The notes beneath the pieces are model-generated. The model was not told where the DNA came from. It was given only the letters and a program-made list of their open reading frames with translations, and made no database searches. A program made the position numbers and the translations under genes. A DNA stretch of 64,000 bases from an uncultured Cetobacterium sp. (GTDB taxonomy: Bacteria; Fusobacteriota; Fusobacteriia; Fusobacteriales; Fusobacteriaceae), in NCBI RefSeq assembly GCF_945952365.1, contig NZ_CAMFHX010000005.1:6832-70831 (forward strand), written 5' to 3'. This document shows, in pieces, positions 8,923 through 32,743 of this stretch. Each line of letters begins with the position of its first letter. The first letter of the stretch is position 1.

Positions 8923-9672
8923 TTAATATTGGTCACTAGCTCAGCTAGTAATCCTTTAAGAAAACGATATCTTGGAAAAATAACTGGCAGAGCTTTAAGA
9001 CTATATACTTTTCTCATCACTAAATCTGACATGGTGATTCGCTTTTAAATTTTCAAAATATTTTATACCTTGACCTTTCGATAAAAGTAAATAGAAAAGG
9101 AGATTACCATATCCAATGATATCGCAATCTCCTACTATTCTAAGGCTAACTTATCTGATTCTTTTCCAGTTCTCTTATTTTTTTTATATAATCTAAAATT
9201 CATCCATTTCATCTACTGAAATTTCATAAACTCTTCAATATCGTACGTAAACTGTATTATATTTCTTTTTGCTTTAGACATATATAACACTTCCTAATAT
9301 CTCTTCTTTTACTTTTTCTTTGTAGTCTTTTACATCTGGATTTTTAAACTTATAATCAAAGACACTTTTTTCAACTAAATCTATCAGTACATAGTATACC
9401 ATATTTAAATTAGAATTTTACTTTACAAATCTACTATAATGATCTAAACACTAAATACTTTTAAAAAAATAATTTTTAAACTCTTCTCTTTTTTATACAA
9501 TATCAGATTTTGTAAAATTAAAGTTGACCTATCATTTAACATATGAGAGTACTTTTATTACTTTTTTAATTAATTATAACACAAAATTAAAAAAAACTGC
9601 CAACATTTATTGTCGACAGCTAGAAATAGAATATAAGTAGATTTTCTTTCAATATAATTTTTTATTTATTTT

Positions 9673-12662
9673 TTAAATCTTCTCAAAAAAATTCTCAAAA
9701 CTGTGAGCTACTTTAAAATCTATTCCAGTATCAATAGCTTTGAAGTGCTCTTTTCCACATTTTATCTTTAGGTTTTCTGTTTCTCTTCTATCCTCTTCAA
9801 ATAGAGAACCTTTAGTTTCAACAACGAAATATAGTTTCTCTTCAGCTCTATCTAAATTAGGTCTTACTAAAACAGCCCAGTCAGGATTATAGTTTCCTAG
9901 AGGTGTTGCTATTTTAAACCAAGCTGGAAGCTTAGCATATACAACAACATTTTTATTTCTCTCTAAATCTTGAGCAAAACTACCTTCTATATCTGAATCT
10001 ATAATAGCGTGAGAATATGGTGACTTTGAACTTTCAATCATATTTCCATTTTTATTCATCTCTGTTTTTAAGTACCCAAATAAATCCTCTGTTTCGAATA
10101 ACTCTTGGCAATAGTACTCCTCTTCACCTAGCTTTTCATACTTAATTCCATCAACTATAAATGCTCTCATAGTTCTTTTTATAACTTCTGTAACCTGCTC
10201 TAAATAAAGTTGTGGATCCTTTTTAAAACTGTATAAAGTTGATGTTCCTGTAAGAATCTCTACTATACTTTTTCTTGTTAAGTTAGTTTCATTTTGTAGA
10301 TAGCTTACAATATCTGGCAGCTTATATCTATTATAAATCTTCATTTCCTCATGCTCAGATACTCCTAACCCATCCTCTTCTATTCCGCCTTGAGTTATTT
10401 GTAATCTCTTTTTTTCGAATAAAAACTTTTCAGATGGTATATATACTGTATTATCAATATTCTCTATACATTTTTTTATTAACTCTTCTTTATTAAAATT
10501 AACTCTGTAAGTAGTTTTATATTTCACCTTTTCCCAAAGTTCTTTAAACTCCTCACTCAATAAAACACCCTTATTAAGAGCAATCTTCTTTTTGTCATCA
10601 GCATTCTTGATAACTAATTTTCCAGCAGTAGATTTTAACTTTTTAATAATAGCAAGTTCTAAAGGTTTGAACTCCTCTGGTAAAACTACTTTATTATCTC
10701 TTAAATCTATTTTTAGTTTATCCTCTGCAATACCTTTAGAGTTTATATAGTTTTGAGTTAACAGATAACTATATATCTCTTCTGATTTTTCATGTCCTAA
10801 ATAAACTTCTTTTCCATACTTTATCTCTGTCACTATATTTGAGAATATATGACTTTCAATAACACCAAATTTGATATTCTCCTCTTTTTCCATCTCTTTT
10901 TGTAGACTATCAACAAATTGTTCATAAGACTCATTTGCCATAACTGTTAAAGTATTCACTTCAAATCCACGAACTCTTTCTCCGTGTTGGTTAACGGCAA
11001 TTCTAAGACCTCTTCCAATCTCTTGTCTTTTCTTTATTTCAGATGTAGTTTCATTCAAAGTACAAATTTGGAATACATTTGGATTATCCCATCCCTCTTT
11101 AAGAGCAGAGTGAGAGAAGATAAATGATAGTGGTTCATCAAAGCTTAATAGCCTTTCTTTATCTCTCATTATTTTGTTAAATGTATCGTTGTCTGCATTA
11201 GTATTTCCCTTTGTATCTTTTTCTTCAAAGTATTCTTTACCACTCTTACTTTTCTTTTTATCCATTGAAAAATAACCATCGTGAACAACAGCAGGTCTTT
11301 CATGCAGAGGAACAGATAATGTACCTAAATCGTGGTACTCAGGATGCTGGATAAGATTAAGATATTCCTCTTCAAACATAATAGCATACTTACCTTTTTT
11401 AGGTTCACCAGTTTCAGTATCATAGATTCTATAGTTTGATACTTTATCAATAAAGAATAGAGATAAAACTTTTATCCCTTGATACTTCAACCTTTTTTGT
11501 TTGTCTAGATGCTCTTTTATAGTTTTTCTAATCTGTAATCTTTTTATAGTATCTGGATTTTCTCCACCGTTTAGTTGTCCTAGAGTAAGTTTAACCTTTC
11601 CTAGATCTACAAAAGATTTAGCAGGGTCCTCTTCATTAAATGTTATTTCATTTACCATATAGCCATCATAGATATCTCTTTTAGTTTTTTCACTTAGAAT
11701 ATCACCATGTTTTATTGAAACCTCTTTTCTAGTTACTTTAGCTCCACTTTTAACATCTAACTCTAACTTTGCACTGATTCCAGTTTTAGTAGCTTTTATA
11801 TCTGTAACTCTTATATATTCTGTATTAGAATTACTACTTACACCTACAGTTGCAACTTCAATCTGTTTAACAAGTTGCTTTTCATAAGCATCCACAGAAT
11901 CTAATTTGAACACAGGATTATATTTTTCTTTATGAGTAGCTGAATATCTTAAAGTACAAAGCGGATTTAAATCTTTTATAGCTTCTTTTGCTTTATCACT
12001 TTCCATGTTTTGAGGTTCATCTATTATTACTACTGGATTACACTGTTGGATATAATCTATTGGTCTATATCTCTTTCTTGCTTTATAACGTTGCTGTCTT
12101 TATTAAAAGAATCTATATTGATAACCATAATTTGAATAGTATCATTAACAGCAAAGTTTCTTATCATATCTATCTTTTTAGAATCATATATGAAATAATC
12201 ATAAGGTACATTATCATACAATCCTTTAAAGTGATCTTTAGTAATCTCTAAAGTTTTGTAAACTCCCTCTTTGATAGCTATTGATGGAACAACTATTATA
12301 AATTTTGTAAAATTATATTGTTTGTTTAGTTCCATTATAGTTCTTAAATAAACATACGTTTTTCCTGTACCTGTTTCCATCTCTACTGAGAAGTTGTAAT
12401 CATCTTTTTTTAGTTTCTTAGTTTGTGGTAATCCGTTTTTAACTTGAATAGAGTTTAAATTTTTTAAAATCTCTTCAGGAAATAGCATCAAGCCATTTCC
12501 TATACCAAGTTCATTTTCAACTGTTCCTAAAACCATTTGAGCTCCTGTTGATTTTTCCACAGTAAACATTGTTTTGTTGCTCTCTTGACCAGAGAATATA
12601 TCTGTAATAGATCCGATTGCATCTAATTGATAACTTAAATCATCTTCAAATTTTATTTTCAA
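9673..12662 (-). pseudogene. res: Type III restriction endonuclease Res subunit, split by a frameshift near 12057-12090 (N-terminal 201-aa ORF 12057..12662 plus C-terminal ORF that is open to 12093)
   Basis: N-terminal ORF carries helicase motif I (TGTGKTYV). Upstream of the annotated Met, the downstream frame reads ...RPIDYIQQCNPVVIIDEPQNMESDK with motif II (DEPQ). The two halves are in frames offset by one nucleotide. Confidence 0.7.
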
Positions 12663-12664
12663 TA

Positions 12665-13663
12665 TTATTCCTCCTCCATAATTAATTTTTTTATATCCTC
12701 TTTTGAAGGAAGAATTGTTTCATATCTACTTGCAAAGATTTGCTCGTTGTTTTCTGGCAGTGTTATCTCTACCAATGTATCATTTTTTTCACGACATATT
12801 ATTATTCCAATAGTTTTATTTTCTTCTGGTAATTTAATAAATCTATCATAGTAGTTAACATACATTTGCATTTGACCTAAATCTTGGTGAGTTACTTCTC
12901 CTATTTTCAAATCAATAAGAACAAAGCATCTCAATAATCTATTATAAAAAACTAAATCTACTCTAAAATGTTTTTCATCAAAAGTAAATCTAACTTGTCT
13001 TCCTACAAAAGTGAATCCTTTTCCTAGTTCTAATAAAAACATCTCTAGCTTGTTAATTATTTCTGATTCTAAATCATGCTCTGAATACTGGTGCTTCTCT
13101 GGAAGCCCTAAAAATTCTAGTACATATGGATCTTTTATTACGTCTATTGGTTTTTCTATTATTTGACCTTTTAACGATAACTCTTTTACAGATTCTTTAT
13201 TTCTACTTAAAACTAATCTTTCATAAAGAGCTGAATCTAATTGTCTTCTAAGTTCTCTTAAACTCCAATTACTGTTAAAAGCTTCAATTTCATAAAACTG
13301 TCTTTCCTCTATATTAGATATTCTCATAAGAATAAGATAATGAGACCAAGATAGATTGAATTCGTCAGACAGTGTCTGACGAATCTTATAAACATCATAA
13401 AAGGTTTTCATCTGCTTTAAATTTGTTTCAGAAAATCCCTTTCCAAAATCCTTTGTTAATCTTATAGAGAGATTTTTTAAAAGTTCTTTACCATAAGTAC
13501 CTCGATATTCACCTTTTTGCTCCTCTTCTAAAATTAGCCTTCCTATTTCAAAATAGGTTTTTACCATGGTTATATTTACTGTTTTCAATACCTTTTCTCT
13601 AGAATTTTTTAAAATATTTAAAATATTTTCATAAAAAATTTCGGTTTTATTTTGCATCTCCAT
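12665..13663 (-). CDS. DUF1016/YhcG-like PD-(D/E)xK nuclease-fold protein inserted between mod and res
   Basis: C-terminal FRVDLVFYN...FVLIDLKIGE resembles the YhcG (DUF1016) nuclease core. 2-bp gaps to both neighbours. Confidence 0.6.
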   Translation of the reverse strand: MEMQNKTEIFYENILNILKNSREKVLKTVNITMVKTYFEIGRLILEEEQKGEYRGTYGKELLKNLSIRLTKDFGKGFSETNLKQMKTFYDVYKIRQTLSDEFNLSWSHYLILMRISNIEERQFYEIEAFNSNWSLRELRRQLDSALYERLVLSRNKESVKELSLKGQIIEKPIDVIKDPYVLEFLGLPEKHQYSEHDLESEIINKLEMFLLELGKGFTFVGRQVRFTFDEKHFRVDLVFYNRLLRCFVLIDLKIGEVTHQDLGQMQMYVNYYDRFIKLPEENKTIGIIICREKNDTLVEITLPENNEQIFASRYETILPSKEDIKKLIMEEE

Positions 13664-13665
13664 AA

Positions 13666-15549
13666 CTATATGCTCCTAATCTCTTTTATTCCAGCTTGTT
13701 TTAGCTTTTGAATAGCGTTTGTTTTATCAACATCATTACTAAATGAGCTATCTCTTAGTACTACTGTAGTTTTATAATCTTCATCTATTTCTAATAGCAT
13801 CTTATACTCTTCACATATAGAATCTATGACATCTAAAGTTATCTCTTTATCCAGGTTAACTAAAAGAGTTCCCCCTCCTATCGAATAGAAATCTTTATTC
13901 TCTACGATTGAAACATTAAGATCTAATCCATATTTTAAAAGAATTTCATAAAGAACATCTAGTGAAGTTCTATCAGCTTTTATATTATCTACTGAATCAA
14001 ATAAAGTTTGCTTTAAATCCTCTGTTTCTGAATCCCACTCTTTAATATTAGAAGTGTCTAGCTTAAATACTTTAAATCCAACGTCTAATTTTTCTCTATT
14101 TTCTAAAGGTAAACTTTCATCAGATTTAATTTTTTCTCCAGCTCTTCTGATTCTTTCTTTTCCTATTTCACAGATGTTTTTGTATCCTGCTTTTGCTGCT
14201 TCTGAATTTTCAGGTGTAGGCTCAGGTAGTTGCACCATTATATATTTTCTATTTCCCCCATCCTCTGCATTTAACTGCATAGTAGCATGAGCCGTTGTTG
14301 CTGAGCCTGAGAAGAAATCTAAGATAATATCTCTACTTTTTGAACTCAAAATTAACATTCTTTTTAATAAATCTATTGGTTTTGGATAATCAAAAAATGC
14401 ATTCCCATCAAAAAGTTTTTTCAACTCTTGTGCTGCTTGTTGATTATGCCCTACTTCATTATAAAACCATAGTGAATTAGGAACAATTCCTGAACTGACT
14501 TCTGATAAAAAAGTTTTTAACCTTGGTGGATTTTCACCACTTGTTCCAAACCAAATTCTGTTTTCAGATACCAATTTATTAAAGTTTTCTTTATTCGTTC
14601 CCCAATATCTACCATTTGGAGGATAAACTTCTTTTCCCGAAGGCGTTGTTATCTTATATTTTAACTTTTCTGTTCCAGATGCTGTTGAAAATACAACTGA
14701 TCTCCATGGTCCCCTAGAATCATTATCAATATTTTTATAATCTTTATTGTCTTCTTCCGTTCTTTCTAAACGATACAATTCAAACCCATCTTTACTATCT
14801 TTTGTTTTCTTTTTAAGCTTTGAATATACTAAAATTGTTTCATGCATAATTGAAAAGTAAGTTGCATCATTTTGTCTCGCAAATTTCTTTTGCCAAGCTA
14901 TATCGACTATGAAATTTTCTTCTCCAAATATTTCATCACATATTTTTTTTAAATTTGTAACTTCATTATCATCTATCGATATAAATATTACTCCATCATC
15001 TGTTAGTAGATTTCTTGCTAGCTTTAATCTTGGATATATCATATTAAGCCAATCAGAGTGGTATCTTCCACTGCTGTCTGAATTTGTACTTAGCTTTTGT
15101 CCCTCTTCTCCAGTTTGCCCTGTTATTTCTAAATAATTCTTTAAACTGTCTTTAAAGTTATCAGGGTATACAAAATCTTTTCCAGTATTATACGGAGGAT
15201 CTATATATATCATTTTAACTTTGTTATGATATGATTTTTGAAGTAGTTTTAACACTTCTAGATTATCACCTTCTATATATAAATTATCTGTGTTATCCCA
15301 ATTTTTAGAGTCTTCTTTTGAAGGTAAAAGTGTTCCAGTACTCGTTTCTTGTGCTATTCTTCTTGCATTAGATTTCCCATGCCAATTGAAAGAGTATCTC
15401 TCGTTTTCTGTATCAATATGTTCCCCTAATACAACTTTTAAAGCATTAAAATCAATCTTATTTTCTGAAAATATTTCAGGAAATATTTGTTTTAATTTCT
15501 CTATATTATCTTGAACTATATTCATGCTTGTTCCATTTAGTTTTTCCAT
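13666..15549 (-). CDS. mod: Type III R-M Mod subunit (N6-adenine DNA methyltransferase, beta class)
   Basis: Motif IV IYIDPPYNTG precedes motif I FFSGSATTAHA. N-terminus KLKQIFPEIFSENKIDFNALK...ERYSFNWHGK is typical of Type III Mod. Confidence 0.85.
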   Translation of the reverse strand: MEKLNGTSMNIVQDNIEKLKQIFPEIFSENKIDFNALKVVLGEHIDTENERYSFNWHGKSNARRIAQETSTGTLLPSKEDSKNWDNTDNLYIEGDNLEVLKLLQKSYHNKVKMIYIDPPYNTGKDFVYPDNFKDSLKNYLEITGQTGEEGQKLSTNSDSSGRYHSDWLNMIYPRLKLARNLLTDDGVIFISIDDNEVTNLKKICDEIFGEENFIVDIAWQKKFARQNDATYFSIMHETILVYSKLKKKTKDSKDGFELYRLERTEEDNKDYKNIDNDSRGPWRSVVFSTASGTEKLKYKITTPSGKEVYPPNGRYWGTNKENFNKLVSENRIWFGTSGENPPRLKTFLSEVSSGIVPNSLWFYNEVGHNQQAAQELKKLFDGNAFFDYPKPIDLLKRMLILSSKSRDIILDFFSGSATTAHATMQLNAEDGGNRKYIMVQLPEPTPENSEAAKAGYKNICEIGKERIRRAGEKIKSDESLPLENREKLDVGFKVFKLDTSNIKEWDSETEDLKQTLFDSVDNIKADRTSLDVLYEILLKYGLDLNVSIVENKDFYSIGGGTLLVNLDKEITLDVIDSICEEYKMLLEIDEDYKTTVVLRDSSFSNDVDKTNAIQKLKQAGIKEIRSI

Positions 15550-15552
15550 TTT

Positions 15553-18270
15553 TTAATCATCTCCATTTATATATTCTAAATACGCTTCTAATATTATGTC
15601 ATTTTTATTTTTTGATTTTATATAATTTTGTAGTAAACAAAGTAAATTTTTATTATTATTTGAATTTTTAATTAATTCTCTTAGTCCTTTTTTAGTAAAA
15701 ATTTCAAAATCATATAATTTAAATAGAGAATAATCAAAGTTTTTTTTATCTAAAGAATAATTTAAAATATTTTGAAATTCTTTTTTCTCAATATACTTAA
15801 TCACATTTTCATTGTCATAATTTTTCATATATTCTATGAATTCAATCGTTACTAAGTTGTTTAAAAGTAAATAAAAAATATTATTTAAAATAACATCTGC
15901 CGTACTTACTAAGGATTTATCTAAATCTAAACTTTGTAACTGCTCTATAATCAATTTTTCTTGAGAAAAATTAGGAGTTATTAATTCTAAATCTATCATT
16001 AATATATATGTTAACATTTCAAATTTTTCTTCTAACTTTATTTTTTCTTCGTTAACAATCTTTTGAATTAAACTTTCCTCTAAAATTCTTGTAAAATATA
16101 ATCTAATCTCTGAATTACTTTTTTCTAAAAAATTTAAAATTTCTTTAGACTCTATAATTTTATCTTCTGTTTTTTCTTTAAAATGATAGGTTAAAAAGTT
16201 AATCAAATCCGAGCTCGGATTAATGAAATCTTTTTCATCAACTATTTTTAAAATTAAATCTTTTAATATATCGCTCTTTAGCTTCTTTATTATTGTATAA
16301 AGAAAATTTATAAAATTGGAAACAGTCTCTCGATACAAAATGTGACTAGAAATAAATAATTCAAAAAAAATAGTGTCATTTAAAATAGTAGTTATACATT
16401 TATTAGCCTGTTCTTCTGTTAGAGACATTTTTGATAATAAAAAAAATATCTTTTGAAGTATTCCATTTACCTTTTCTTTCGATTTTTCTGAAAAATCAAG
16501 AATATTTTTCAAACTCAGAATTAGATTTTCAACACATGATTTATCACATTTTAACTCATCTATAAAATAATCTTTAAATAATAGCTTTAAATCATTTAAA
16601 TTTAATTGTATCATTAAAAAAATATCAAGATAACAAACCTTATCTATTTTTTCAAATTTTGAACCTTTACCTAAAAACTTTTTACCATCTTGAACTTCAT
16701 TAGTATAAGCTATAAATAGTATTTCTAAATATTTTTTTGTAATTTTATACATCTCAAAGCTATTCAAACTTATTCCATTAAATATACAATGATTGAAAGC
16801 TTCTTTTATATAATATTCTGAATTTTCTATTACTGTCATTCCTAAATGACAACTATTTTTATTTCCTCTTATTTTATATAAATAATTTTCAAATTTTTGT
16901 TCAATTTTGCTCAAAGTTAAATTTTCAAAAATTTCTTTATATAACTCTGTCTCATTTTTAAAAAACTTTCTATATATTTTATTCAAATCAATTTTATCCT
17001 TATTTTCAAAGTTGAATCTGTGTTCTTCATTTTGAATATTTGACAAAATAAAATTATTCCAAATAATTTTCTCTCTGGGTAACTTTTGAATTTTATATTC
17101 TTCAATTACTTCTTTAGCTTTTTGAAATTCATTAAAAAATGTAAAGCCGCACGCTATTAGATAATTATTTTTTATTTCATGGATTAAATTTTCAAATTTA
17201 TTTTTATCAAAAATCATTATTGAATTTACTATGCTATTCTCATATTCATTAGAAAACAACTCATTAATCTCTATTTTCTCAGGTTTATTTATAACTATAT
17301 TATTAACCCGAGCTTTAAAAAATATGTCTTTATATTTATATGAATCATCCATTTTTTCTACTGTTATTCCTTTAGTTGTTATTATCCCTTCATCCGAAAG
17401 AAAGTATTTAGAAACGCTTATATCTTTTATAATTTTTTTTAAATTATCTTCTGTTATATAATTTAAATTTTCATAAATCTTAAAGTTTTCTTTCATTTCA
17501 TTATTTTTCCTTCTAGACTCTAAATCTTTTAAAAATTCAGCCAATGTTTCACCTTTGTTACCATTTAAACATTCCAATGAAATCTCATTTATTAATTTAT
17601 TATTATTTTCATTATTTTCAAAATTAACAAGGTATACTTTTCTAAAGTCCTCATTCAATATATCACTAATCCACTTCATAATATTTTTAACATTTATATC
17701 ATTCAATGAATAACCTATAAACAGAACCGTATTTGTTGTAAATAAACTTTTTACAAATGTTGTTATTAATGGAAAGTTTTGTTCATATTTATCATAATCA
17801 CTTTTTTTTAAAACAACATTTCTATTTTCTATATCGCCATGCATTTTAATTATCATTTTTTTGGATTTTGAATATGCTAACTCTTCATCTTTAGTTACCA
17901 AATCATATTCATTATTTTCATTTAATTCAGTTTCAATCAAATTATCATAATTTGTTGTTATTATATAGTCTAAATTAAGTTTACTCAAAGCTTTATGAAT
18001 AAAGTTTGGTTCGTGATTACCCTTAAATGTTTTTTCTAAAATATCATAATACTTTATTTTTCCAAAATGATTATAAAATTTTTCAGGAATTTCTAACATT
18101 TCTTCAGAGCTATAATTATCTTTTTTTATTCCCATATATTCTGCATAACATTTTACCAATGAACTCCAACTAGGCAAATCGCTATTCATTGAAACTCCTG
18201 CTCCAACAAAAATAACTAATTTTTGATTTTGTAATTCTTCTGCTAAAAAATCAATATACTTTTCGTTCAA
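15553..18270 (-). CDS. SIR2-like domain protein (905 aa; N-terminal SIR2_2 NADase-like domain plus long helical C-terminal region; DSR2/ThsA-like)
   Basis: LVIFVGAGVSMNSDLPSWSSLV, TTNYDNLIE, KMHGD and VLFIGYSLND match SIR2_2 core motifs. Stop is 3 nt from the mod start, and the mod RBS (GGAGA) lies inside this ORF. Confidence 0.7.
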   Translation of the reverse strand: MNEKYIDFLAEELQNQKLVIFVGAGVSMNSDLPSWSSLVKCYAEYMGIKKDNYSSEEMLEIPEKFYNHFGKIKYYDILEKTFKGNHEPNFIHKALSKLNLDYIITTNYDNLIETELNENNEYDLVTKDEELAYSKSKKMIIKMHGDIENRNVVLKKSDYDKYEQNFPLITTFVKSLFTTNTVLFIGYSLNDINVKNIMKWISDILNEDFRKVYLVNFENNENNNKLINEISLECLNGNKGETLAEFLKDLESRRKNNEMKENFKIYENLNYITEDNLKKIIKDISVSKYFLSDEGIITTKGITVEKMDDSYKYKDIFFKARVNNIVINKPEKIEINELFSNEYENSIVNSIMIFDKNKFENLIHEIKNNYLIACGFTFFNEFQKAKEVIEEYKIQKLPREKIIWNNFILSNIQNEEHRFNFENKDKIDLNKIYRKFFKNETELYKEIFENLTLSKIEQKFENYLYKIRGNKNSCHLGMTVIENSEYYIKEAFNHCIFNGISLNSFEMYKITKKYLEILFIAYTNEVQDGKKFLGKGSKFEKIDKVCYLDIFLMIQLNLNDLKLLFKDYFIDELKCDKSCVENLILSLKNILDFSEKSKEKVNGILQKIFFLLSKMSLTEEQANKCITTILNDTIFFELFISSHILYRETVSNFINFLYTIIKKLKSDILKDLILKIVDEKDFINPSSDLINFLTYHFKEKTEDKIIESKEILNFLEKSNSEIRLYFTRILEESLIQKIVNEEKIKLEEKFEMLTYILMIDLELITPNFSQEKLIIEQLQSLDLDKSLVSTADVILNNIFYLLLNNLVTIEFIEYMKNYDNENVIKYIEKKEFQNILNYSLDKKNFDYSLFKLYDFEIFTKKGLRELIKNSNNNKNLLCLLQNYIKSKNKNDIILEAYLEYINGDD

Positions 18271-18294
18271 GTTAACTCCTTTCCTTACCTATCT

Positions 18295-18356
18295 AAAAAA
18301 AAGACCCCTATGTTACCACTTATTTCTAAGCGATATGCCTTTCGGCTATAGGGGTA
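18295..18356 (-). terminator. Terminator-like structure between the 226-aa gene and the SIR2 gene
   Basis: Minus-strand ACCCCTAT...ATAGGGGT 8-bp stem (long loop with a GCCGAAAGGC sub-hairpin) followed by T8. Confidence 0.35.
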
Positions 18357-18418
18357 CGGATCTTATTTATTCATTGATAAAATTATAACTCAAAAATAAA
18401 TACGTGTCAATCAAATCC

Positions 18419-19099
18419 CTATTTAAACTCTTTTTTTTCTTTCATTTTAGCCACTAGTTTAGTTTGAATCTCAGCTATTTTATTAAGTTGAGTCTCTTTT
18501 TTTCTAAGAGCTTTCAATTCCTCTATCTCTTTATTTAAAGCCTCTAGTTTTTCTATGTTCCTAGTATCTATGTTTGAATCTATTTTTAGAGTTTTAGATA
18601 GATTATATATTTTTATTTTTTCTATTATGCTTTCGTAGAATAGTTTCAAATTAGTTGAATTAAAATTTTTATAAATAAGTTCTTTTAAATATTCGTCATC
18701 ATTGTTTATCCATAAACTATTTTGCAACTCTTCGACTTTAAAAGTATTCTCTGTAATCTCCTTTTTAGCTAAAGAGATTAGTATCTCATTTTCGAAGCCT
18801 AAGATTACAACAGTTGCTTTAGGAATAAGCTGATGTAATAGCTTTGAAACTGTATTTTCTTTTCCCTTTTCTTTTAATTCAACTTTCAAAAAGTTAATCT
18901 CTTCATAACGCTCTTTACTGTCTATATAGCTTTCAATATTTGTATTCTTATAATTTAATATATATTGGAGTCTGATTCTTTCCACATTTTCTACAAATAT
19001 TCTTTTTAATTTTTCATCTGCATCTGCAACCCTATAAATTATCTCTTTAGGTACAATCTTATCTATCTTCAACTCTTTAGGAAAATTAAATATCTCCAT
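18419..19099 (-). CDS. Hypothetical protein (226 aa) with a K/E-rich coiled-coil C-terminus; last gene of the helicase/ATPase operon
   Basis: Intact ORF 49 bp downstream of the ATPase gene. No motif recognised by eye; possibly DUF4391-like, unverified. Confidence 0.4.
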   Translation of the reverse strand: MEIFNFPKELKIDKIVPKEIIYRVADADEKLKRIFVENVERIRLQYILNYKNTNIESYIDSKERYEEINFLKVELKEKGKENTVSKLLHQLIPKATVVILGFENEILISLAKKEITENTFKVEELQNSLWINNDDEYLKELIYKNFNSTNLKLFYESIIEKIKIYNLSKTLKIDSNIDTRNIEKLEALNKEIEELKALRKKETQLNKIAEIQTKLVAKMKEKKEFK

Positions 19100-19148
19100 A
19101 CGCTTCGACTCCTTTATCTATTTTCTACCTATTTTTTATAACTTATAA

Positions 19149-20039
19149 TTAAAGCTCTAATTCCATAACATTTTCTAAAATATTGTCCATAGATTGACCA
19201 TATGTTAACTCATTCAGTTTTTTTATCTCTATTCCTGAACTGCTCTTTTTCATTACTCTTACATTCTCATTCTTAACACTTCCTATTATGTGTGGAGAAT
19301 GTGTTGCAATTATTACTTGGTTGTTATCACCTATATTCTGATATATTTTTATTATCTTTTGTTGCCATTTTGGATGTAAAGATATCTCTGGTTCATCAAT
19401 TAATATTATCGCATTTTCAGCCTCTATCATCTTAAGGGTAAGTGCTCTCATAAAAAGTTGCTTTTCTCCAGAAGAAAGTCCATTAATATCAAAAACTTCT
19501 CCAAAAGAGTTACTAAATAATGGTAAATCTTTTTCATCAGGAGTAAATCCAATCATTTTTATATCTAACTCTAACTCTTTGAATATTTTATTTGTTTCCT
19601 CTGAAACTTTATCCTTTATCTGCTTATAAGTCATATCTTCGTTATTTTTTTGCATCAGTTTTACTTTTGTTGCTAAATATGATGGAATATCTTTTACTAT
19701 ACTCGAATCAACTTTATTTAAAAATTTGTACTCATATTTATATTTATCACTAGCATTTTTTATCTCTGAAAAATTTATTTCTGTTGGCATATATATAACT
19801 TTAGATAATTTCTTTAAATCAGCTTCTTCATTTAAAAATTCAATTTCTGTTTCGCTTACCACTTCATTATTTTTATTCAAAAAATAATTATAAATAGCTT
19901 CTAATAAATTCGTTTTACCACTCCCATTGCTTCCAGCTATAACTATAAGTTCTTGAGCTTTTCCATCTTTATCCAAAAAATCTATATTTAAATTTTTTAA
20001 TATTTCATGATTTTTTAATTGTATATTTTTAATTTTCAA
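19149..20039 (-). CDS. Small ABC-type/AAA_21-like ATPase (296 aa)
   Basis: Walker A VIAGSNGSGKTNLLEAI; Walker B/D-loop AIILIDEPEISLHP; ABC signature-like LSSGEKQLF. Confidence 0.7.
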   Translation of the reverse strand: MKIKNIQLKNHEILKNLNIDFLDKDGKAQELIVIAGSNGSGKTNLLEAIYNYFLNKNNEVVSETEIEFLNEEADLKKLSKVIYMPTEINFSEIKNASDKYKYEYKFLNKVDSSIVKDIPSYLATKVKLMQKNNEDMTYKQIKDKVSEETNKIFKELELDIKMIGFTPDEKDLPLFSNSFGEVFDINGLSSGEKQLFMRALTLKMIEAENAIILIDEPEISLHPKWQQKIIKIYQNIGDNNQVIIATHSPHIIGSVKNENVRVMKKSSSGIEIKKLNELTYGQSMDNILENVMELEL

Positions 20040-20052
20040 TTTTATTCTCCTC

Positions 20053-23000
20053 CTACTTTATAACTAAAAATGATATCAACTCAAAATCATCCATGTTTTG
20101 TGCTGAGTTATTTAGAATAGTTTCTCCAAAGCTGAATAAGCTCTCTAGACCTTTCTCCTCTTCTTTTCCAATTATGTTTTGAACTGTTTTTTCCAAGAAG
20201 TTAGTAAACTTTTTCATATCTTTAGCTTCACTTGTTTCTGTATTAAACTGTGCTATTAAATCTGTATAAACCTTATCCTCTCCACTACAAACTTTCTTGT
20301 AAAGATCCAAGATTTTTTTACTTTGAATAAAGTTTAGTAAAACCTCTCCATCATCTTTTATATAAACTAGGAAATAAGGATTTAATGGATTATGCTCACT
20401 TGGCTTCAATTCATTATTAATCTGTTTTAAGCAGAATATAACCCCTTTTTCAGCTTCCTCTATATTACTTTTAGCAACAGCATACATTCCAGTTGATGTA
20501 TTTTCTAAAACCTCTTTATTCTTTTTCATATAGTTAACTAAATCCATTTTGAAATCATTAAATGTCAAATCTGTTATAGAGATTCCACCGCTTATGTCTT
20601 CTAAATCAACGACTTGCTCTTGAAGTTGATGTAGCTGCTTCTTTCTGTAATCTAAATCATTCATATTCTCACTGTCAGTTATTATGTTTTCCTCTCCAGT
20701 AGCAGACATATCTAGCATTACCATTCTTCCACTAACTCTAGCTTCTAAGTTGATATATTCATCCAACTCCATATTAGGCCAGAAGTTAACAAGTTGTATA
20801 ACTTCATTTTTAGATCCAATTCTATCAACTCTTCCGAACCTTTGAATAATACGAACAGGATTCCAGTGAATATCATAGTTTATTAAATAATCACAATCTT
20901 GTAAGTTTTGTCCCTCTGAAATACAATCAGTTGCAATTAAAATATCAATCTCAGGTAGATTTGATTCTCCTCTTTCTTTAGATCTTGGAGAGAAGTTTGT
21001 AAGAATTGTATTGAATTCATTTTTAATACCTTTTAAAGTACTTTTAGGATTGTCACTTCCAACTACAAGAGCTGAATGAATTCCTAACTCTTCAGAACAG
21101 TATTTTGAAATATTGTCATATAGATATTTTGCAGTATCCGCAAAAGCTGTAAAGACTATAACCTTTTTATTTTCTGAATTTAGTGGAGATTGTACTTTAT
21201 TAGTTATAAGTTTTTTTAACTCTAATAACTTTTTATCTCTTCCTGGATTTATTAAATAAGCCTCTTTTAAAAGCTTTTCTAAAATCTCCTTATCTTTTTC
21301 CAGTTCAGATTTCCATTTAATTTGATCAATATCTTTTAAAAGAACTTTAACTTTCTTACTTCCTATTAAAACACCATCTAATCTATTATCATCTATATCA
21401 ATCTCTTCAATATCAAAGTCTTCTACAATATCTTCACAACTATCTAATTTTTGTAATGCAGAATCTATATTTTTCAGTAACTTTGAAACTGTTAATCCAA
21501 ATGAGTAAATAGAACTTTCCATTCTTTTTAAGATATTTATTCTCATTAGGTGTACTAAACTTTCCTCTCTATCCACTTGCTTAAATACAGACTTTCCAGT
21601 TTTAGTATCATATTTTTTACTATATTCATCTATCTTACTAGGAAGAACATATTTAATAGAACAATAGATTGCTAAGTTTAAACTTCTTATCAATCTATTT
21701 AAATCTGGAAGAGGTATAAACTCGTTTAATTTATCTATGTCAGCTTTTATATTTATTGGTTTCAATCTTTCAGGGAATTTACCAATACTTGATGTATCAT
21801 AATACTTTTGAATGTGTTTTCTAGATCTAGCTATAGTAAGCATATCTAAAAGTTTAAAATAATCCATCTCTAAAAACTCTAAAAGAGTTTCTAACTTCTT
21901 TTTCTCTTCAGGTAGATCAGACCATCTGTTAAAAGCCATTTGAGCTTTTCTTAAAGTTTGCTCTATACTTTTTATTCCATGAATATTAAGAGCTGCATCC
22001 TCTCCCTCTGTTGCAAAAGCGATTTGATTTTTCAAATCGTTCATCTTATTGTTAACAGGAGTTGCAGAAAGCATCAGAACCTTTGTTTTAATACCTTTTC
22101 TAATAATTTGATTTAATAGTCTAGAATATCTAGTTTCTTTATCATCTTTTTTATTATTGTTATTTCTAAAGTTATGTGATTCATCTATAACAATTAGATC
22201 ATAATTTTCCCAATATATTTTCTCTAAATTTATTTCACCACTATATCCAGAGTATCTAGAAAGATCTGTATGATTTAACACATCATAGTTAAGTCTATCT
22301 TTTTCTAAAACATTATCTTTTCTATTTCCTTTATATGTCAGCCAGTTATCTCTTAACTTTTTAGGACATAGTACAAGAACTCTGTTGTTTCTTGATTCAT
22401 AATACTTTATTACAGCAAGAGCCTCAAAAGTTTTACCAAGTCCAACTGAATCAGCTAAGATACAGCCGTTATATTTTTCTAGCTTATCTATTGCTCCTAA
22501 AACGCCATCTTTTTGGAAATTATATAGTTTATTCCAAACAACACTCTCTTTAAATCCAGTTTTACTTTTTACAATATCCTCTTCACTTAGATTATCTAAG
22601 TAATCTTTAAAAATATTGTAAAGAGTAACAAAATAAATAAATTCTGAAGTGTTTTCTTTATAAACTCCCTCTAAAGTTTCTAATAGTGATTTTTTTACAT
22701 CTTTAACTTTTGAGGTATCGTTCCAAAACATATTAAATTGGTTAACCATTTGAGAGGTATACATGCTGTTTTTAACATATGTATTCATTTCAGGTTTAGA
22801 TGAGGCTACTAGTCCAAGTCCTCCAGAAGTGAAATCTGAACTTCCAATAATACAAGAACTTTCCTGTTTTTTATTCTCCATCAAATACATTTTTTGTGGA
22901 AGAGAATACTCTTCATCATAAGCTCTAACTTCTACCTTATTTCTAATCCAATCTGCACACTCTTTAGCTATCTCAGATTGTTTAAGTTCATTTTTAAGGC

Positions 23001-23268
23001 TCATTTCATATCTATCCCCAGCTAAGCCTCTTTCGTAACTTCCACTTAATTTAAACTCTCTGTTTATATCTTTTTTATCTTTTATAAAAGTTGGCTCAGA
23101 AAAAAGTAATCTTAAACTTTCTATTTTCCCTAACTCTTTTCTTAAGTGCTCATAGGCATAAATAGTGAAATATGCTGAGATAATAGAAACCTTTGTTCCT
23201 GATCTCAGATCATCCTTCAACTTATCTATAACCCTTCCATTGGTTTTATTATCTAAAAACTCCATCAA
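20053..23268 (-). CDS. PLD-like nuclease domain fused to SNF2-family helicase (1071 aa)
   Basis: N-terminal PLDc_2-like segment (VSIISAYFT...GSSDFTSGGL). SNF2 motif I ILADSVGLGKTFEA, motif II LIVIDESHNFRN, motif VI IIQRFGRVDRIGS. Confidence 0.75.
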   Translation of the reverse strand: MMEFLDNKTNGRVIDKLKDDLRSGTKVSIISAYFTIYAYEHLRKELGKIESLRLLFSEPTFIKDKKDINREFKLSGSYERGLAGDRYEMSLKNELKQSEIAKECADWIRNKVEVRAYDEEYSLPQKMYLMENKKQESSCIIGSSDFTSGGLGLVASSKPEMNTYVKNSMYTSQMVNQFNMFWNDTSKVKDVKKSLLETLEGVYKENTSEFIYFVTLYNIFKDYLDNLSEEDIVKSKTGFKESVVWNKLYNFQKDGVLGAIDKLEKYNGCILADSVGLGKTFEALAVIKYYESRNNRVLVLCPKKLRDNWLTYKGNRKDNVLEKDRLNYDVLNHTDLSRYSGYSGEINLEKIYWENYDLIVIDESHNFRNNNNKKDDKETRYSRLLNQIIRKGIKTKVLMLSATPVNNKMNDLKNQIAFATEGEDAALNIHGIKSIEQTLRKAQMAFNRWSDLPEEKKKLETLLEFLEMDYFKLLDMLTIARSRKHIQKYYDTSSIGKFPERLKPINIKADIDKLNEFIPLPDLNRLIRSLNLAIYCSIKYVLPSKIDEYSKKYDTKTGKSVFKQVDREESLVHLMRINILKRMESSIYSFGLTVSKLLKNIDSALQKLDSCEDIVEDFDIEEIDIDDNRLDGVLIGSKKVKVLLKDIDQIKWKSELEKDKEILEKLLKEAYLINPGRDKKLLELKKLITNKVQSPLNSENKKVIVFTAFADTAKYLYDNISKYCSEELGIHSALVVGSDNPKSTLKGIKNEFNTILTNFSPRSKERGESNLPEIDILIATDCISEGQNLQDCDYLINYDIHWNPVRIIQRFGRVDRIGSKNEVIQLVNFWPNMELDEYINLEARVSGRMVMLDMSATGEENIITDSENMNDLDYRKKQLHQLQEQVVDLEDISGGISITDLTFNDFKMDLVNYMKKNKEVLENTSTGMYAVAKSNIEEAEKGVIFCLKQINNELKPSEHNPLNPYFLVYIKDDGEVLLNFIQSKKILDLYKKVCSGEDKVYTDLIAQFNTETSEAKDMKKFTNFLEKTVQNIIGKEEEKGLESLFSFGETILNNSAQNMDDFELISFLVIK

Positions 23269-23339
23269 TTTCTCCCCTAATAAAATTTTTAATTTTACTT
23301 AATTATAACACTTTTTGATATTTCTTTTCAAATTTTTAA

Positions 23340-23372
23340 CAAAAAAATAGAGTGTGTATTTTCTCACACTCT
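23340..23372 (-). terminator. Rho-independent terminator after the helicase/PC4 operon
   Basis: Minus-strand hairpin AGAGTGTG-(loop)-CACACTCT followed by ATTTTTTTG. Confidence 0.5.
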
Positions 23373-23379
23373 CTTCACT

Positions 23380-23622
23380 TTATATATTTTCAAGTATTTC
23401 TAATTCTCTCTCTATCAAATCCTTTAATTTTCTTAACTCTTCTTCTGTTAATGTTATTCCTTTCCCCATTTTTTTATGTTCAGGATCCCAAGTTCTAATA
23501 TCATACTTTGGTTCTTCTCCATTCCAACTTATACGAGTTAATTCTTTTTTCCACCCCTTACTTCCCTCTGAGAGAATTCCCAATTCATTTAAAATTTCAA
23601 ATTTTAATTCTTGTTTACTCAT
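23380..23622 (-). CDS. PC4-like (YdbC-family) ssDNA-binding protein, 80 aa
   Basis: ISWNGEEPKYDIRTWDPEHKKMGKGITLTEEE matches the bacterial PC4/YdbC fold signature. Start overlaps the stop of the upstream 1615-aa gene. Confidence 0.55.
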   Translation of the reverse strand: MSKQELKFEILNELGILSEGSKGWKKELTRISWNGEEPKYDIRTWDPEHKKMGKGITLTEEELRKLKDLIERELEILENI

Positions 23623-23623
23623 T

Positions 23624-26600
23624 CTAAGCCTCCTTCATTTTTATTCTCCAAGCTTTTCTATTTCCTGTAGCTTTTGCTCCTCTTTTATCAAAAGTATATC
23701 CATAGTTTTCAGTCTGTAAAAACATCTCTACTTTTCCTTCTATTTCAGGAGTATAGATAATCCACAGCAATCCAGAACTCTCATTATTATCGATATATTC
23801 TATCTGGTGTTCATTTAAAAAAGTATATATGTTCTTTTTTTCTATTTTTTTCATCTCTTTTTCAAACGATAAATTTAATTGTAACTCCTTGCTATTATTT
23901 AAAGTTTCTATAATATTTTTTTGAATTCTTTCAACTTTTTCTGTTTCTTCTAATCCTAGGTTTACTTCTTTAATATCTAAAACATTCTCTTCTTTCACAT
24001 CTATAATTTCAGGATTTTTATAATTCTCTCTCCATTCTTCAAGAAGTTCTAAAGATCTATTTTTTATTTTATTTGTAATCTCCATCTCACTTTCTGTTTT
24101 TACAGCTCTAATATCCTCTGGATAAATCTCTCTTTTCTCCAACTCTTTTATCACATTTTCCATTGTTAAATCTTTATTTCTAAAGTATTTACTTCCTCTT
24201 ATTCTAATAAACTCCCAGCCACATCTCTCTAGTACTTCTTGACGCTCCATATCATTTCGAATTTGTTCTTCACTGCTATGCCATCTATCTCCATCACATT
24301 CGATTGCTACTCTTTTATTTCCATAAGAAATAACCATATCAATTCTATAGGCACCTACCTGCCATTGTTGTTCAATATTATAATTTCTAGCTGAAAGATA
24401 CTTTGCAACCTCTTCTTCAAAAATAGAGTCTGATTTTTTTTCAATATTCTCTCCTTGCATAAAATAATTTGGATTTTCTGCAAATTCTAAAAGTTCTCTT
24501 CTTATATCATCATTTTTTAAATCATTTAATTTATCCAGAGAGTGTACTATCCACATCTGATTTTTTGCTCTACTTGTCGCTACATTATATCTTTTCTTTA
24601 CTGAACCCTCTGCCCCATCACCTGTTTTTCTTAAAGGTCCATCCTCGTTTAGATTACTATCAACCATACTCAAAAATATAACATCTCTTTCATCTCCTTG
24701 AAAATGACTTGCATCTCCACAAAGAATATTATGTTTTTCTATTTTAGAGCTCCCTACTTTTTCTACCAGCAATTTTTGAATTACATCTACTTGCTCTTTT
24801 CCTAACAATGATATTACTCCAAATGATGAATTTTCATATATTTCTTCTTCTAAACAAGCACAAATCAAACTTACAATCGCTTCAGCTTCAACTATGTTAG
24901 TTTTACCATCTACTCCTCTTTCTCCTAAGACCCTATGATTTATAACAGCTGGTTTTAATTTAGAGCTATTAGCTTCTCTTAAAGGCTTTATTTTGTAGTC
25001 ATATGATGTTTTATTGCTATATGAAATAATTTCTGGAACACATCTAAAATGTTCTCTTAGCATTAAAGGTTGATATGTTGTTGAAGCAATTGAATATAAA
25101 GAGCTTTTAGTATCATATAAATCATAATTACTGATTCGTCCCTTCAAGTATTTTTCTCTCAATATATTTTCTTTTTCTATTTTTTGCCCTATTCCTAGAG
25201 GACTAACTTGCTTATCATCTCCAACAATTATTACTTTTTTAGCCATATATAATAATACCAATGAAGAAATATCCGATTGACTAGCTTCATCTATTATTAC
25301 TATATCGAATTTGTTTTTAGCAGGATTTAAAGTATCAATAACTTTACCCATAGGCATTATCCAAACTGGCACAGCTTTTTGACAACTTGATATTTTTTCT
25401 TTTGCTTGAGCTCGATACATTTCAACATTTTTTCCTGTTCCTTTACCCATTTTTTCAATTGTTTGCTTCCATCCTCTTAAAGCTTGACTTATTAATAAAT
25501 TATCTTTTCTCTCTACAAAACATAAAACATGATACCATGATTTTTTTTCAACTAATTTCAATGTCAATCTTTTCAAATTTAAAGACCTTTGCTTTAGTTG
25601 TTCTTGCAATTCTTCATAAGGCTCTTTTTCTAATTCCTCCATTTTTTTCGAAAGTTGACTCCATTTCCAAACTTCGTAAATATCTTCAATCTCTTCTTCG
25701 AAAGTTCCATTTTTTAAACTCATACAAAAATCCCTTGCTACAACTTCTATTTTGTTTAATAATTCGTGCTTTTTATTATATAGCACTCTTTTTTCTGACG
25801 TATTTTCTAATATCTGTAACCACCTAGCATACTCTTCATAATTCTCATTATAAATAGCCAACCTAATATTTGTTTCAATCATGGATGATTGCTTTGAATT
25901 TTTCAAAATTAAACTATAATATGTCGCATATTCTTTCTTTACTTTTAATAAGTTCATTCCAGCTTGAATTACCTTCAAGGTCTTTTCTAATTTATGACCT
26001 AGACTACAAATCATTTTGACTTGTTCAAACATAAATTCTGTTTTTTTATTATCTAAAAGATAGTCTATATTTAAACCTGCATCTTCTATATTTTTTAAAA
26101 AAATTTGCTTTTGATTTTTATTCCATTCTAGGAAATAGTTTAATTTATTTATGTAATTATAGGCATATTCTAAAAATTCATCCCCTTCTTTCTTAGAAAT
26201 TTCATTTATTTTTATCAATATATCCCATTTTTTCTTTAAATTTTGCTTTTCTTTTTCTATCTCTAAAAAGTTTAAAACTAATTCACAGTCTTCATTTGTT
26301 ACTATTTCTTTTCCATTATAATAAATTTTTCCCTTCAAATTATCTTTTGCTTTTTTTAAATTATTTTTAAACAAAAAACCCGGATTTTTTAAGGCTTCTT
26401 TAAATTTTTTCAAAAGTTCTATTCCTTCTGAAATGTCTATAAAATTATGCTCTATTATCTTATCAAAATATATTTTCCTACTTTTATCAACCAGATTATA
26501 AACTTCCTCAATATTTTTTATCAAATCTTTATAAAGATCCTTTTTTGAATTCTCATTACATCCTACTAATATAATTTCAAGTTGCCATTCTTCTATTTTT

Positions 26601-29582: not shown

Positions 29583-30680
29583 TTAATAAGCCAGTAGTGT
29601 TCTACCAACTTCACGAATATTTATACTTGCATTTAGGTCTCTATCCATACTATGACCACATTCACAGTTATATACTCTATCTCCTAAAGAAAGCGAGTCT
29701 TTTATGTTTCCACAAGAAGAACAAGTTTTTGACGATGGAAACCACTTATCTATTTTTATTACTTGTTTACCTAAAAACATAGCCTTGTACTGAAGCATGA
29801 CTGTGAATAATCCCCAAGAGTTATCAGCGACAGATTTACCAAAGTTTAATGCCTGACTCATACCTTTCATGTGCAGGTCCTCAATGATAATCGCATTATA
29901 CTTTGTAACTAATTCTCTTGATAACTTGTGGAGAAAGTCTTTTCTACTGTTTTTAATAGATTGATGGATTTTAGCAACTTTCAATTTAGCTTTATACCAA
30001 TTACTTGAAAATTTAACTTTTCTTGACAGCTCTCTTCCAGCTTTAGCTAATTTAGTTTCTAATTTTCTAAAAAATCTAGGATAATCAGCTCTTTGGTTAT
30101 CAGAGCTAACGAATAATTCAGACATAGAAAAATCAAGTCCAACGATATTGTTATCGCTAGGTACTTCTTTTATATCTCTTTGAAATTCAGTAAGAATAGA
30201 AACGTAAAAAGCCCCATTAGGTTCTTGGCTAATGGTAGCAGATTTAATTTTATAATTTTGAGGTATATTTCTATGAAGTTTAGCTTTAACTAATCCCAAT
30301 TTAGGAAGCTTTAAGAAAGTACTCTCTATTCTAATAGAGTTATTAACACTATTTGTAGAATAAGATTTTCTAGCTGTTTTTTTAGATTTAAACTTAGGAA
30401 AAGCTGTTCTTTTCTGAAAAAAATTAGTGAATGCAGTTTTTACATTCATTTGAGCATTGGCTAAAGCTAGACTATCAATTTCTTTCAAAAATGGAAATTC
30501 AGATTTAAGAGAAGCAGGAGTAATAATTTTATTTTTACCCTCCAATTCATAAATCTCTTTAGCTTTACCCAAAATCTTATTATATACAAACCTAACACAA
30601 CCAAAAGTTTGTAAAATCAAATTCGATTGAACTTCATTTGGGTATATTCTAAATCTAAAAGCTAAATTATATGTCTTCAT
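29583..30680 (-). CDS. tnpB: TnpB (OrfB) RNA-guided nuclease / IS605-family transposase accessory protein
   Basis: N-terminal RFRIYPNEVQSNLILQTFGCVRFVYNKIL OrfB_IS605 motif. RuvC-like core. C-terminal zinc finger CSSCGN...CECGHSMDRDLNASINI. Confidence 0.85.
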   Translation of the reverse strand: MKTYNLAFRFRIYPNEVQSNLILQTFGCVRFVYNKILGKAKEIYELEGKNKIITPASLKSEFPFLKEIDSLALANAQMNVKTAFTNFFQKRTAFPKFKSKKTARKSYSTNSVNNSIRIESTFLKLPKLGLVKAKLHRNIPQNYKIKSATISQEPNGAFYVSILTEFQRDIKEVPSDNNIVGLDFSMSELFVSSDNQRADYPRFFRKLETKLAKAGRELSRKVKFSSNWYKAKLKVAKIHQSIKNSRKDFLHKLSRELVTKYNAIIIEDLHMKGMSQALNFGKSVADNSWGLFTVMLQYKAMFLGKQVIKIDKWFPSSKTCSSCGNIKDSLSLGDRVYNCECGHSMDRDLNASINIREVGRTLLAY

Positions 30681-32656: not shown

Positions 32657-32743
32657 TGGTGCCTGAGGGGGGACTCGAACCCCCAAGGTGTTAGCACCGG
32701 CGGATTTTGAGTCCGCTACGTCTACCAATTCCGTCACTCAGGC
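32657..32743 (-). tRNA. tRNA-Leu (anticodon CAA), class II with long variable arm; CCA encoded
   Basis: 7-bp acceptor stem GCCTGAG/CTCAGGC. Anticodon loop CU-CAA-AA. Long variable arm. T-loop GGTTCGAGTCC. 3' CCA. Confidence 0.9.

Follow-up and report, generated by a model that had tools for sequence, protein, structure and literature searches.

Type III restriction-modification (R-M) is regarded as a well-understood two-subunit system. Pairs of an SNF2 ATPase and a methylase have been described in class 1 DISARM, ARMADA, BREX type 3 and Dpd (bioRxiv 10.1101/2021.12.28.474362; PMC13463889; bioRxiv 10.1101/2025.09.15.676423), and the Hma family is defined by a DUF499 AAA+ ATPase (HmaC), the helicase HmaA and the methylase HmaB (PMC12839542). 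In this study, we analysed a locus in a stretch of 64,000 nucleotides (nt) from an uncultured Cetobacterium sp. of the family Fusobacteriaceae (assembly GCF_945952365.1, contig NZ_CAMFHX010000005.1, positions 6,832 to 70,831), hereafter called the window. Coordinates are those of the whole window unless another record is named, and all genes of the locus lie on the minus strand. A sequence-only reading had taken three of these genes, which encode an SNF2 protein of 1071 amino acids (aa), a 296-aa ATPase and a 226-aa protein of the DUF4391 family, as one operon and as a candidate uncharacterised defence system. By the sequence comparisons described below, these three proteins are not one system. 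We consider it likely, with a probability of roughly 70%, that a conserved module, SNF2–DUF4391–Mod–Res, is present in the window in partly decayed form, its last two genes encoding the type III methyltransferase and restriction subunits, and that defence genes were inserted at all three of its junctions.

The SNF2 protein of the window belongs to the DrmD/BrxH/DpdE-like group and is encoded near an adenine methylase that presumably marks self DNA, as in DISARM class 1, ARMADA, BREX type 3 and Dpd. However, the window lacks the YprA-type helicase/DUF1998, PglZ/BrxC and active PLD domain of these systems, and the partners of its SNF2 protein are a type III Res and DUF4391. The locus is also similar to the Hma-centred BR systems, which combine a helicase and a methylase with defence guests at their junctions, Septu being among the commonest, and whose type-2 helicase likewise carries an HKD domain at its N-terminus (Payne et al., bioRxiv 10.1101/2024.01.29.577857; PMC12839542). 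Nevertheless, the host of the guests in the window is type III-like and without DUF499, and the HmaA profile matched the C-lobe of the SNF2 helicase only (residues 652-829, E = 4.1e-31). Compared with type III R-M of the EcoP1I/EcoP15I type, Mod precedes Res in the usual order, both have the usual sizes, and Res consists of a superfamily 2 helicase with a C-terminal RE_endonuc domain; the differences are that the module adds an SNF2 ATPase and DUF4391 before Mod in 17 lineages and that, in the window, Res is not a single polypeptide and three foreign cassettes are embedded. The embedding of defence genes is known for Hma, BREX, DISARM and type I R-M, with Septu as a frequent guest (bioRxiv 10.1101/2024.01.29.577857), and Abi2 and HEPN genes embedded in Fusobacterium R-M operons were noted in 2013 (PMC3710099).

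Several named systems were tried and rejected. DISARM, ARMADA and Druantia were set aside for want of a YprA/DUF1998 helicase, and BREX because a scan of nine proteins of the locus gave no match to PglZ or BrxC models. A Hma/DUF499-centred BR system was rejected likewise, as there is no DUF499 AAA+ ATPase and the ATPase of the window is an ABC-type PtuA. AriA models of PARIS matched this ATPase, but PtuA matched it far better, and no AriB/Toprim model matched any scanned locus protein. When DrmA and DrmB of B. cereus were used as tblastn queries (E <= 1e-3), no homologue was found in the whole window. The profile scans and tblastn searches thus bore out the opinion of the sequence-only reading that neither DISARM, BREX, PARIS nor an intact Septu is present.

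Conservation of the SNF2–DUF4391–Mod–Res gene order

The neighbourhoods of DUF4391 genes, at 22-100% identity, were examined in metagenome and genome contigs and in annotated plasmids, and a tblastn tally was made over all loci. A profile scan of genome contigs gave 9 loci, and the sample was widened via DUF4391-encoding contigs and tblastn of plasmids. Wherever the locus sequence sufficed, the gene order was constant: SNF2 (approximately 1070-1115 aa), DUF4391 (approximately 225-330 aa), Mod and Res. The lineages were Fusobacterium, two types of Cetobacterium, uncultured Clostridia, Desulfosporosinus, three lineages of metagenomic contigs (L025; L026-L028; L030-L031), Acinetobacter, IncF plasmids of E. 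coli, Aeromonas, Phaeobacter, Desulforapulum, B. cereus, Lactococcus, Enterococcus and the archaeon Methanomethylovorans. Between B. cereus and the window, the full-length SNF2, Mod and Res proteins were 52%, 43% and 44% identical, respectively.

In 16 of the 17 lineages, no ATPase gene intervened between SNF2 and DUF4391; it occurred there only in the lineage of the window, and in all the others the junction was at most 9 base pairs (bp) long or the two genes overlapped. The DUF4391 and Mod genes also overlapped in three loci (L025, L030 and L043). Since the ATPase is absent from this position elsewhere, and Mod and Res follow downstream, the real unit therefore appears to be SNF2–DUF4391–Mod–Res. 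The neighbourhood check that the sequence-only reading had recommended for homologues of the 226-aa protein came out against its three-gene unit, with SNF2 and DUF4391 adjacent or overlapping and free of the ATPase in all lineages but one. The trio was seen together only in the window's own lineage, which includes an independently assembled contig (L015) and a syntenic Cetobacterium locus (L032, GCA_051654765.1).

The window itself carries the four genes in the same order on the minus strand, and its deviations are three embedded cassettes and a frameshifted Res. As for the gene structure, the sequence-only reading was right about the three minus-strand open reading frames (ORFs) of 1071, 296 and 226 aa and about the gaps of 13 and 49 bp, which were confirmed at the positions in Table 1. 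It had also placed the trio directly beside mod; in fact a 905-aa SIR2 gene intervenes. By their sequences, the SNF2, DUF4391, Mod, SIR2 and YhcG genes look intact; neither the restriction arm nor the Septu cassette is likely to function in this genome.

Many copies of the module were carried by conjugative plasmids and by integrative and conjugative elements (ICEs). In several distant lineages, a small helix-turn-helix (HTH) gene of about 65-70 aa was observed directly upstream of SNF2 (L025, 4918-5130; L039, 6542-6739; L044, 1226-1429; L045, 1921-2121). It could encode a controller protein of the module, and it is absent from the window. On a B. cereus plasmid (NZ_AP022875.1, 274723-288456; L043/L046), drmA and a DUF1998 (drmB-like) gene were observed directly upstream of the four genes on one strand, forming a six-gene array. 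The Res search had returned 18 Bacillus plasmid records, of which this is the one inspected. A hybrid of DISARM and the four-gene module is a possible explanation of the array, whose drmA/DUF1998 neighbours hint at a link between the module and DISARM-type machinery. The comparison of the locus with DISARM-class systems in the sequence-only reading was to this extent apt, as the SNF2 protein falls in the DrmD/BrxH/DpdE-like group and the B. cereus plasmids carry drmA and drmB; the unit to be compared, however, is not the three genes. In the Fusobacterium loci (L001-L008, L017-L018), many copies had two paralogous Mod genes separated by Abi_2 or by SIR2_2+DUF87+YhcG. Several of these Mod genes were preceded by an overlapping ORF of 47-52 aa, as though the 5' end had been frameshifted, which may reflect phase variation.

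A Septu remnant between SNF2 and DUF4391

The 296-aa ATPase matched AAA_15/AAA_21 of Pfam and has Walker A/B and signature motifs. The sequence-only reading, which had recognised these motifs, had called the protein a minimal ATPase. However, it is a PtuA truncated at the C-terminus: the PADLOC model PDLC00289 for PtuA matched with an E-value of 5.6e-108, and the match stopped at profile position 338 of 404. Close homologues of this ATPase are mostly 354-410 aa long. In L032, the flanks of which are 99% identical to the window, a 359-aa PtuA (P0391) and an overlapping 195-aa gene are located between SNF2 and DUF4391. The profile match of P0391 reaches position 398 of 404, and the 195-aa gene encodes PtuB (PADLOC, E = 4.2e-48; a weak HNH match). 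The window ATPase is identical to P0391 at 291 of its first 295 residues and is short of the last 63 residues or so. As revealed by blastn, 35 bp of the window replace 774 bp of L032, which comprise the ptuA 3' end and almost the whole of ptuB, and no ORF in the 49-bp gap fits a PtuB partner.

Furthermore, a PtuA and PtuB pair was found alone in a separate locus (with a PtuA cluster named for Fusobacterium ulcerans), and no SNF2, DUF4391, Mod or Res homologues were detected at that locus. The window is similar to Septu in the strong PtuA match and in the presence of PtuA plus PtuB at the same site in L032, but its PtuA is cut at the C-terminus and its PtuB is gone. What is left is a remnant and not a system. 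The remark in the sequence-only reading that Septu needs an HNH partner was sound, as this partner, PtuB, is present in the syntenic locus and deleted in the window. The same reading held that the trio matched no named system, and was to be given up if it did; for the ATPase, now assigned to Septu, this is half the case.

The SNF2 protein and the DUF4391 protein

The 1071-aa protein was matched over its full length by the PADLOC family C3a139 'HKD+Snf2' (E = 4.2e-146), and its Pfam domains are SNF2-rel_dom and Helicase_C. PLDc_2 scored 25.5 bits against a gathering cut-off of 27 bits. We aligned 13 members of the SNF2 family from 12 lineages. The His and Lys residues of the catalytic motif HxK(x)4D were missing in 13 of the 13 aligned representatives; in place of HxK, the window has LPQKMY, and other members have AQPRLI, MQSF or the like. 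In contrast, SNF2 motifs I (GLGKT), II (DESH) and VI (QRFGRxDRxGS) were invariant across all 13. Therefore, the 1071-aa protein is expected to be a motor and not a nuclease, and an active HKD nuclease-helicase was rejected. The degenerate PLD-like domain and the complete SNF2 motifs I, II and VI had been correctly recognised in the sequence-only reading. Its suggestion of a methylation-coupled helicase-nuclease module survives in part: SNF2 and DUF4391 are tied to a type III mod, but the nuclease is missing from the SNF2 protein.

DrmD models were among the best named matches of the SNF2 protein (PADLOC, E = 6.1e-41; NCBIfam, E = 2.6e-48). Nevertheless, the NCBIfam DrmD model NF038317 gave 165 bits against a cut-off of 610 bits, and the protein was also far under the NCBIfam cut-offs for DpdE and ZorD. 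The SNF2 core is similar to RapA and to chromatin remodellers. The C3a139 'HKD+Snf2' family, to which the SNF2 protein of the window belongs, appears in Shah et al. (2018, PMC6546367) only as a gene found beside type III CRISPR-cas cassettes (4 cases); that listing assigns it no function and mentions no link to DUF4391, Mod or Res. In the NCBI annotation, the module genes appear merely as 'helicase-related protein' and 'DUF4391 domain-containing protein'.

The 226-aa protein matched DUF4391 (PF14335) of Pfam with an E-value of 1.4e-39, as the sequence-only reading had guessed. In its AlphaFold2 model (pLDDT 89.4, pTM 0.79), residues 1-130 form an alpha/beta head and residues 151-225 three long helices. 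Few residues of the family are invariant, i.e. K18, E67, I92, P93, W130, N150 and Y155, and no catalytic signature was recognisable in the alignment or the model. A profile of the DUF4391 alignment found no sequence relatives in the PDB below an E-value of 0.02, and no solved structure with a fold similar to the model was found there. The most economical reading of the model is that DUF4391 acts as a non-catalytic adaptor mediated by its coiled coil; a divergent PD-(D/E)XK-like domain is conceivable but less economical. From a single-sequence search, 405 clusters of the family at 50% identity could be reached, and DUF4391 was present on 63 plasmid records and in 10 of 5426 complete E. coli genomes. 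In the literature searched, the reach of which excluded most subscription-journal papers, we found no published work on DUF4391 or on SNF2–DUF4391–Mod–Res, which is not proof of novelty. DUF4391 was mentioned in a statistics table, the other mention was apparently a slip for DUF7941, and there was none under PF14335 or IPR025503.

The type III Mod and the broken Res

The Mod protein was matched by the PADLOC model MTase_III (PDLC03634) at positions 2-621 of 621 (E = 1.5e-230) and by N6_N4_Mtase (PF01555) of Pfam (E = 7.4e-42), and its translation contains the DPPY catalytic motif (IDPPYNTG) and an AdoMet motif (DFFSGSATT). The central region of the gene (14908..14333) had no blastn match in L032, which suggests a different specificity domain in the two loci.

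The PADLOC model REase_III (PDLC03647) matched Res in two parts, 1-195 and 222-985 of 989. Relative to the intact Res of L032, a 13-bp deletion at 12072/12071 (GATCAAGCAAATG) shifts the frame between helicase motifs I and II. The same split into 201 and 777 aa was found in the independently assembled L015, with which 22 more contigs of identical DUF4391 had been collapsed as similar places; a sequencing error is therefore unlikely. Given the frameshift, restriction is probably dead in this genome, and a functional type III system in the window was rejected.

A proposed mechanism and its alternatives

In the mechanism that we propose, Mod would methylate one strand of an asymmetric site and so mark self DNA, and Res, within the Mod/Res enzyme, would be the sole nuclease of the core and would act on unmethylated DNA. 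The SNF2 protein may serve as a translocase or remodeller of double-stranded DNA, or as a displacer of proteins, without nuclease activity of its own. DUF4391, with its globular head on a coiled-coil stalk, may be a dimeric adaptor that couples this motor to the Mod/Res complex or to DNA. Together, SNF2 and DUF4391 would extend or safeguard methylation-gated type III restriction. A cooperation of the pair with Mod/Res is suggested because the genes strictly co-occur, because they overlap and because SNF2-plus-methylase pairs have precedents. Tentatively, and as something possible rather than probable, we propose that SNF2 and DUF4391 mark a widespread, unrecognised 'type III-plus' class of R-M in bacteria, archaea and plasmids, in which a remodeller-type motor and a coiled-coil adaptor of new fold alter the finding or the attack of foreign DNA, and in which the three junctions are hot spots for defence cassettes and may be mined for new systems.

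Several points weigh against the module reading and its mechanism. The cooperation of the pair with Mod/Res is something we infer from gene order, co-occurrence and precedent alone, and the sample comprises about 17 lineages and is no census. Moreover, in three lineages (the window; L009/L011/L012; L039), Res is only a remnant while SNF2–DUF4391–Mod was kept, so that these genes may work without Res, or the restriction gene may merely have been the first to decay. On a Thiodictyon plasmid (NZ_CP020372.1, 127750-133757; L047), Mod–RhuM–Res was found with no SNF2 or DUF4391 upstream. The Res of this plasmid is 57.5% identical to that of L025, i.e. of the same clade, and therefore the SNF2/DUF4391 pair appears to be accessory and not required for type III function.

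These observations would suit a pair that is sufficient for itself, i.e. a defence or plasmid-interference unit that merely accompanies type III R-M and, like BREX and DISARM, may rely on nothing but the methylation mark to block unmethylated DNA without Res. We regard this as rather unlikely. The same-clade Mod–Res without the pair, the pair and Mod kept in the three lineages with a broken or truncated Res, the working of SNF2-plus-methylase with other partners in DISARM and ARMADA, and the many copies on conjugative plasmids and ICEs all speak for it. However, where the locus sequence suffices, the pair was never seen without Mod downstream, and neither an active nuclease domain in the SNF2 protein nor a recognisable catalytic motif in DUF4391 could be found. 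Furthermore, restriction genes are often the first to decay in R-M systems, and therefore the retention of the pair without Res is weak evidence. Another explanation is that the pair regulates or safeguards the type III enzyme, for instance by clearing stalled Mod/Res off self DNA, much as RNA polymerase is recycled by RapA, or by timing restriction after horizontal transfer. The resemblance of the SNF2 core to RapA and chromatin remodellers, the inactive PLD domain, the frequent location of the modules on mobile elements, where control of establishment matters, and the small HTH gene just upstream in several lineages are in line with this role. Canonical type III systems, on the other hand, function without an SNF2-type safeguard factor, and the sequences do not separate a safeguard from an offensive role; we give this explanation only a slight chance.

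The autonomous three-gene system of the sequence-only reading, composed of the SNF2 protein, the 296-aa ATPase and the 226-aa protein, is very improbable. The genes are indeed co-directional, with short gaps and a promoter-like site upstream, and the trio is also present in L015, the representative of 23 contigs grouped as similar places. Nevertheless, the ATPase is missing between SNF2 and DUF4391 in 16 of the 17 lineages, it is a truncated PtuA whose full form is accompanied by PtuB in L032, and the PtuA/PtuB pair is also found alone. It is hardly credible that the locus is a variant of class 1 DISARM. DrmD models are among the best named matches of the SNF2 protein, and in the B. cereus plasmids the four genes directly follow drmA and a DUF1998 gene, but there is no DrmA/DrmB homologue in the window, 16 of the 17 lineages are without DrmAB, the DrmD score is far below its cut-off, and no active PLD is present. 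In addition, the methylase is a type III Mod (PF01555) and not the pfam13659 methylase of class 1 DISARM.

To type III R-M, the module adds DUF4391 and an SNF2 motor whose nuclease-like domain is inactive, and this addition is conserved in organisms as distant as Fusobacteria and methanogens and on E. coli plasmids. Should the two proteins indeed cooperate with Mod/Res, they would provide a fourth type of partner for the SNF2-plus-methylase theme known from BREX, DISARM and ARMADA, and DUF4391 would gain a function. The embedding of defence genes is extended to a type III-like host, with cassettes of Septu, SIR2, YhcG, Pycsar, Abi2, HEPN, RhuM and SIR2–HerA-like type at fixed junctions, and new defence genes may be sought at these junctions as well. 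What the analysis says about this one genome is more modest: its Septu cassette and its restriction subunit are broken.

Other embedded cargo and a structured element

The 905-aa SIR2 protein matched SIR2_2 of Pfam (E = 1.4e-26), and PADLOC models matched its N-terminus only (ThsA, E = 7.8e-38; Dsr2, E = 1.3e-24). The C-terminus of approximately 650 aa had no match to any family in the profile scans. At the SIR2 position, L032 has a 918-aa PHP/Ppl-like gene, as shown by blastn and its gene table, and by sequence the exchange looks like a clean cassette swap. The YhcG gene is located exactly between Mod and Res in the window, whereas L032 has no YhcG and its Mod abuts Res. The guests at equivalent junctions elsewhere were Abi_2, SIR2_2+DUF87, the pEK499_p136 HEPN protein, Pycsar (PycTM and cyclase), an 'RNA-binding domain' protein, RhuM, an IS1 element and second copies of Mod.

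Just 3' of the DUF4391 stop codon, a perfect sigma-70 consensus promoter is followed, after approximately 20 nt, by a branched hairpin, and the unit from the promoter to the T8 run is about 80 nt long (Table 1). L032 shares the element as far as the T-run, and it is precisely at this point that the sequence passes into the variable cargo (SIR2 or PHP). It is single-copy in the window, and no Rfam match was obtained in 9-30 kb of the window, this element included, at E <= 1. The sequence-only reading had proposed a terminator-like structure at this position. A hairpin with a T-run was indeed found at about 18355..18293; however, the perfect promoter precedes it, and therefore it is not simply the terminator of an operon. 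The whole element (18292-18410) could be a small RNA, a terminator, or a leader or attenuator for the cargo–Mod–Res genes. The upstream terminator of the same reading, at about 23340-23372, was confirmed as a hairpin with a T-run. Between the promoter-like site ahead of SNF2 and the SNF2 gene, there is a GGGGAG ribosome-binding site.

Table 1. Positions of the genes and other elements of the locus in the window
Feature	Position	Strand	Remarks
Intrinsic-terminator-like hairpin	23349..23372	-	Closes the upstream helicase/PC4-like unit; 8-bp stem, 4 GC pairs, T-run
Promoter-like site ahead of SNF2	23302..23331	-	TTGAAA-18-TG-TATAAT, 11/12 matches, extended -10
SNF2 gene (core gene 1)	20053..23268	-	1071-aa ORF; likely start ATG 23265, giving 1070 aa as annotated in L015
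ptuA remnant (embedded cargo)	19149..20039	-	296-aa ORF
Deletion scar	19121..19155	-	Septu cassette; see text
DUF4391 gene (core gene 2)	18419..19099	-	226-aa ORF
Perfect sigma-70 consensus promoter	18382..18410	-	TTGACA-17-TATAAT, 12/12 matches; conserved in L032
Structured RNA element	18292..18360	-	Branched hairpin and T8; fold -24.6 kcal/mol, z = -3.1
SIR2 gene (embedded cargo)	15553..18270	-	905 aa, SIR2_2 domain
Mod (core gene 3)	13666..15549	-	Type III methyltransferase, 627 aa, apparently intact
YhcG/DUF1016 gene (embedded cargo)	12665..13663	-	PD-(D/E)XK nuclease; PADLOC candidate PDC-S02 and Pfam
Res (core gene 4)	9673..12662	-	Pseudogene; ORFs of 201 aa and 777 aa
Terminator-like hairpin	9595..9621	-	3' of Res, end of the locus; 11-bp stem, T-run

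Neighbouring genes

Just upstream of SNF2, the minus-strand region 23380-28471 holds two genes. One encodes a 1615-aa superfamily 1 helicase whose C-terminus carries an MTES_1575/DUF559 endonuclease domain (PADLOC candidate PDC-S37, E = 8e-72), and its translation is apparently coupled to that of the other, which encodes an 80-aa PC4-like protein (PF02229 in the gene table of L015). The two genes are a candidate for a separate defence pair. Further upstream are an IS605-type TnpB/OrfB of 365 aa (29583-30680, minus strand; Pfam families taken from the L032 orthologue) and a tRNA-Leu(CAA) (32657-32743, minus strand). As they flank the upstream side of the defence cluster, they hint at an island extending from about 9.6 to 30 kb. 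Beyond Res, a small NTP_transf_2 nucleotidyltransferase gene and an NTase_sub_bind partner are located at approximately 8626-8922 on the plus strand, a position inferred from 20178-20474 of L015; these two genes look like a toxin-antitoxin pair of the MNT/HEPN type.

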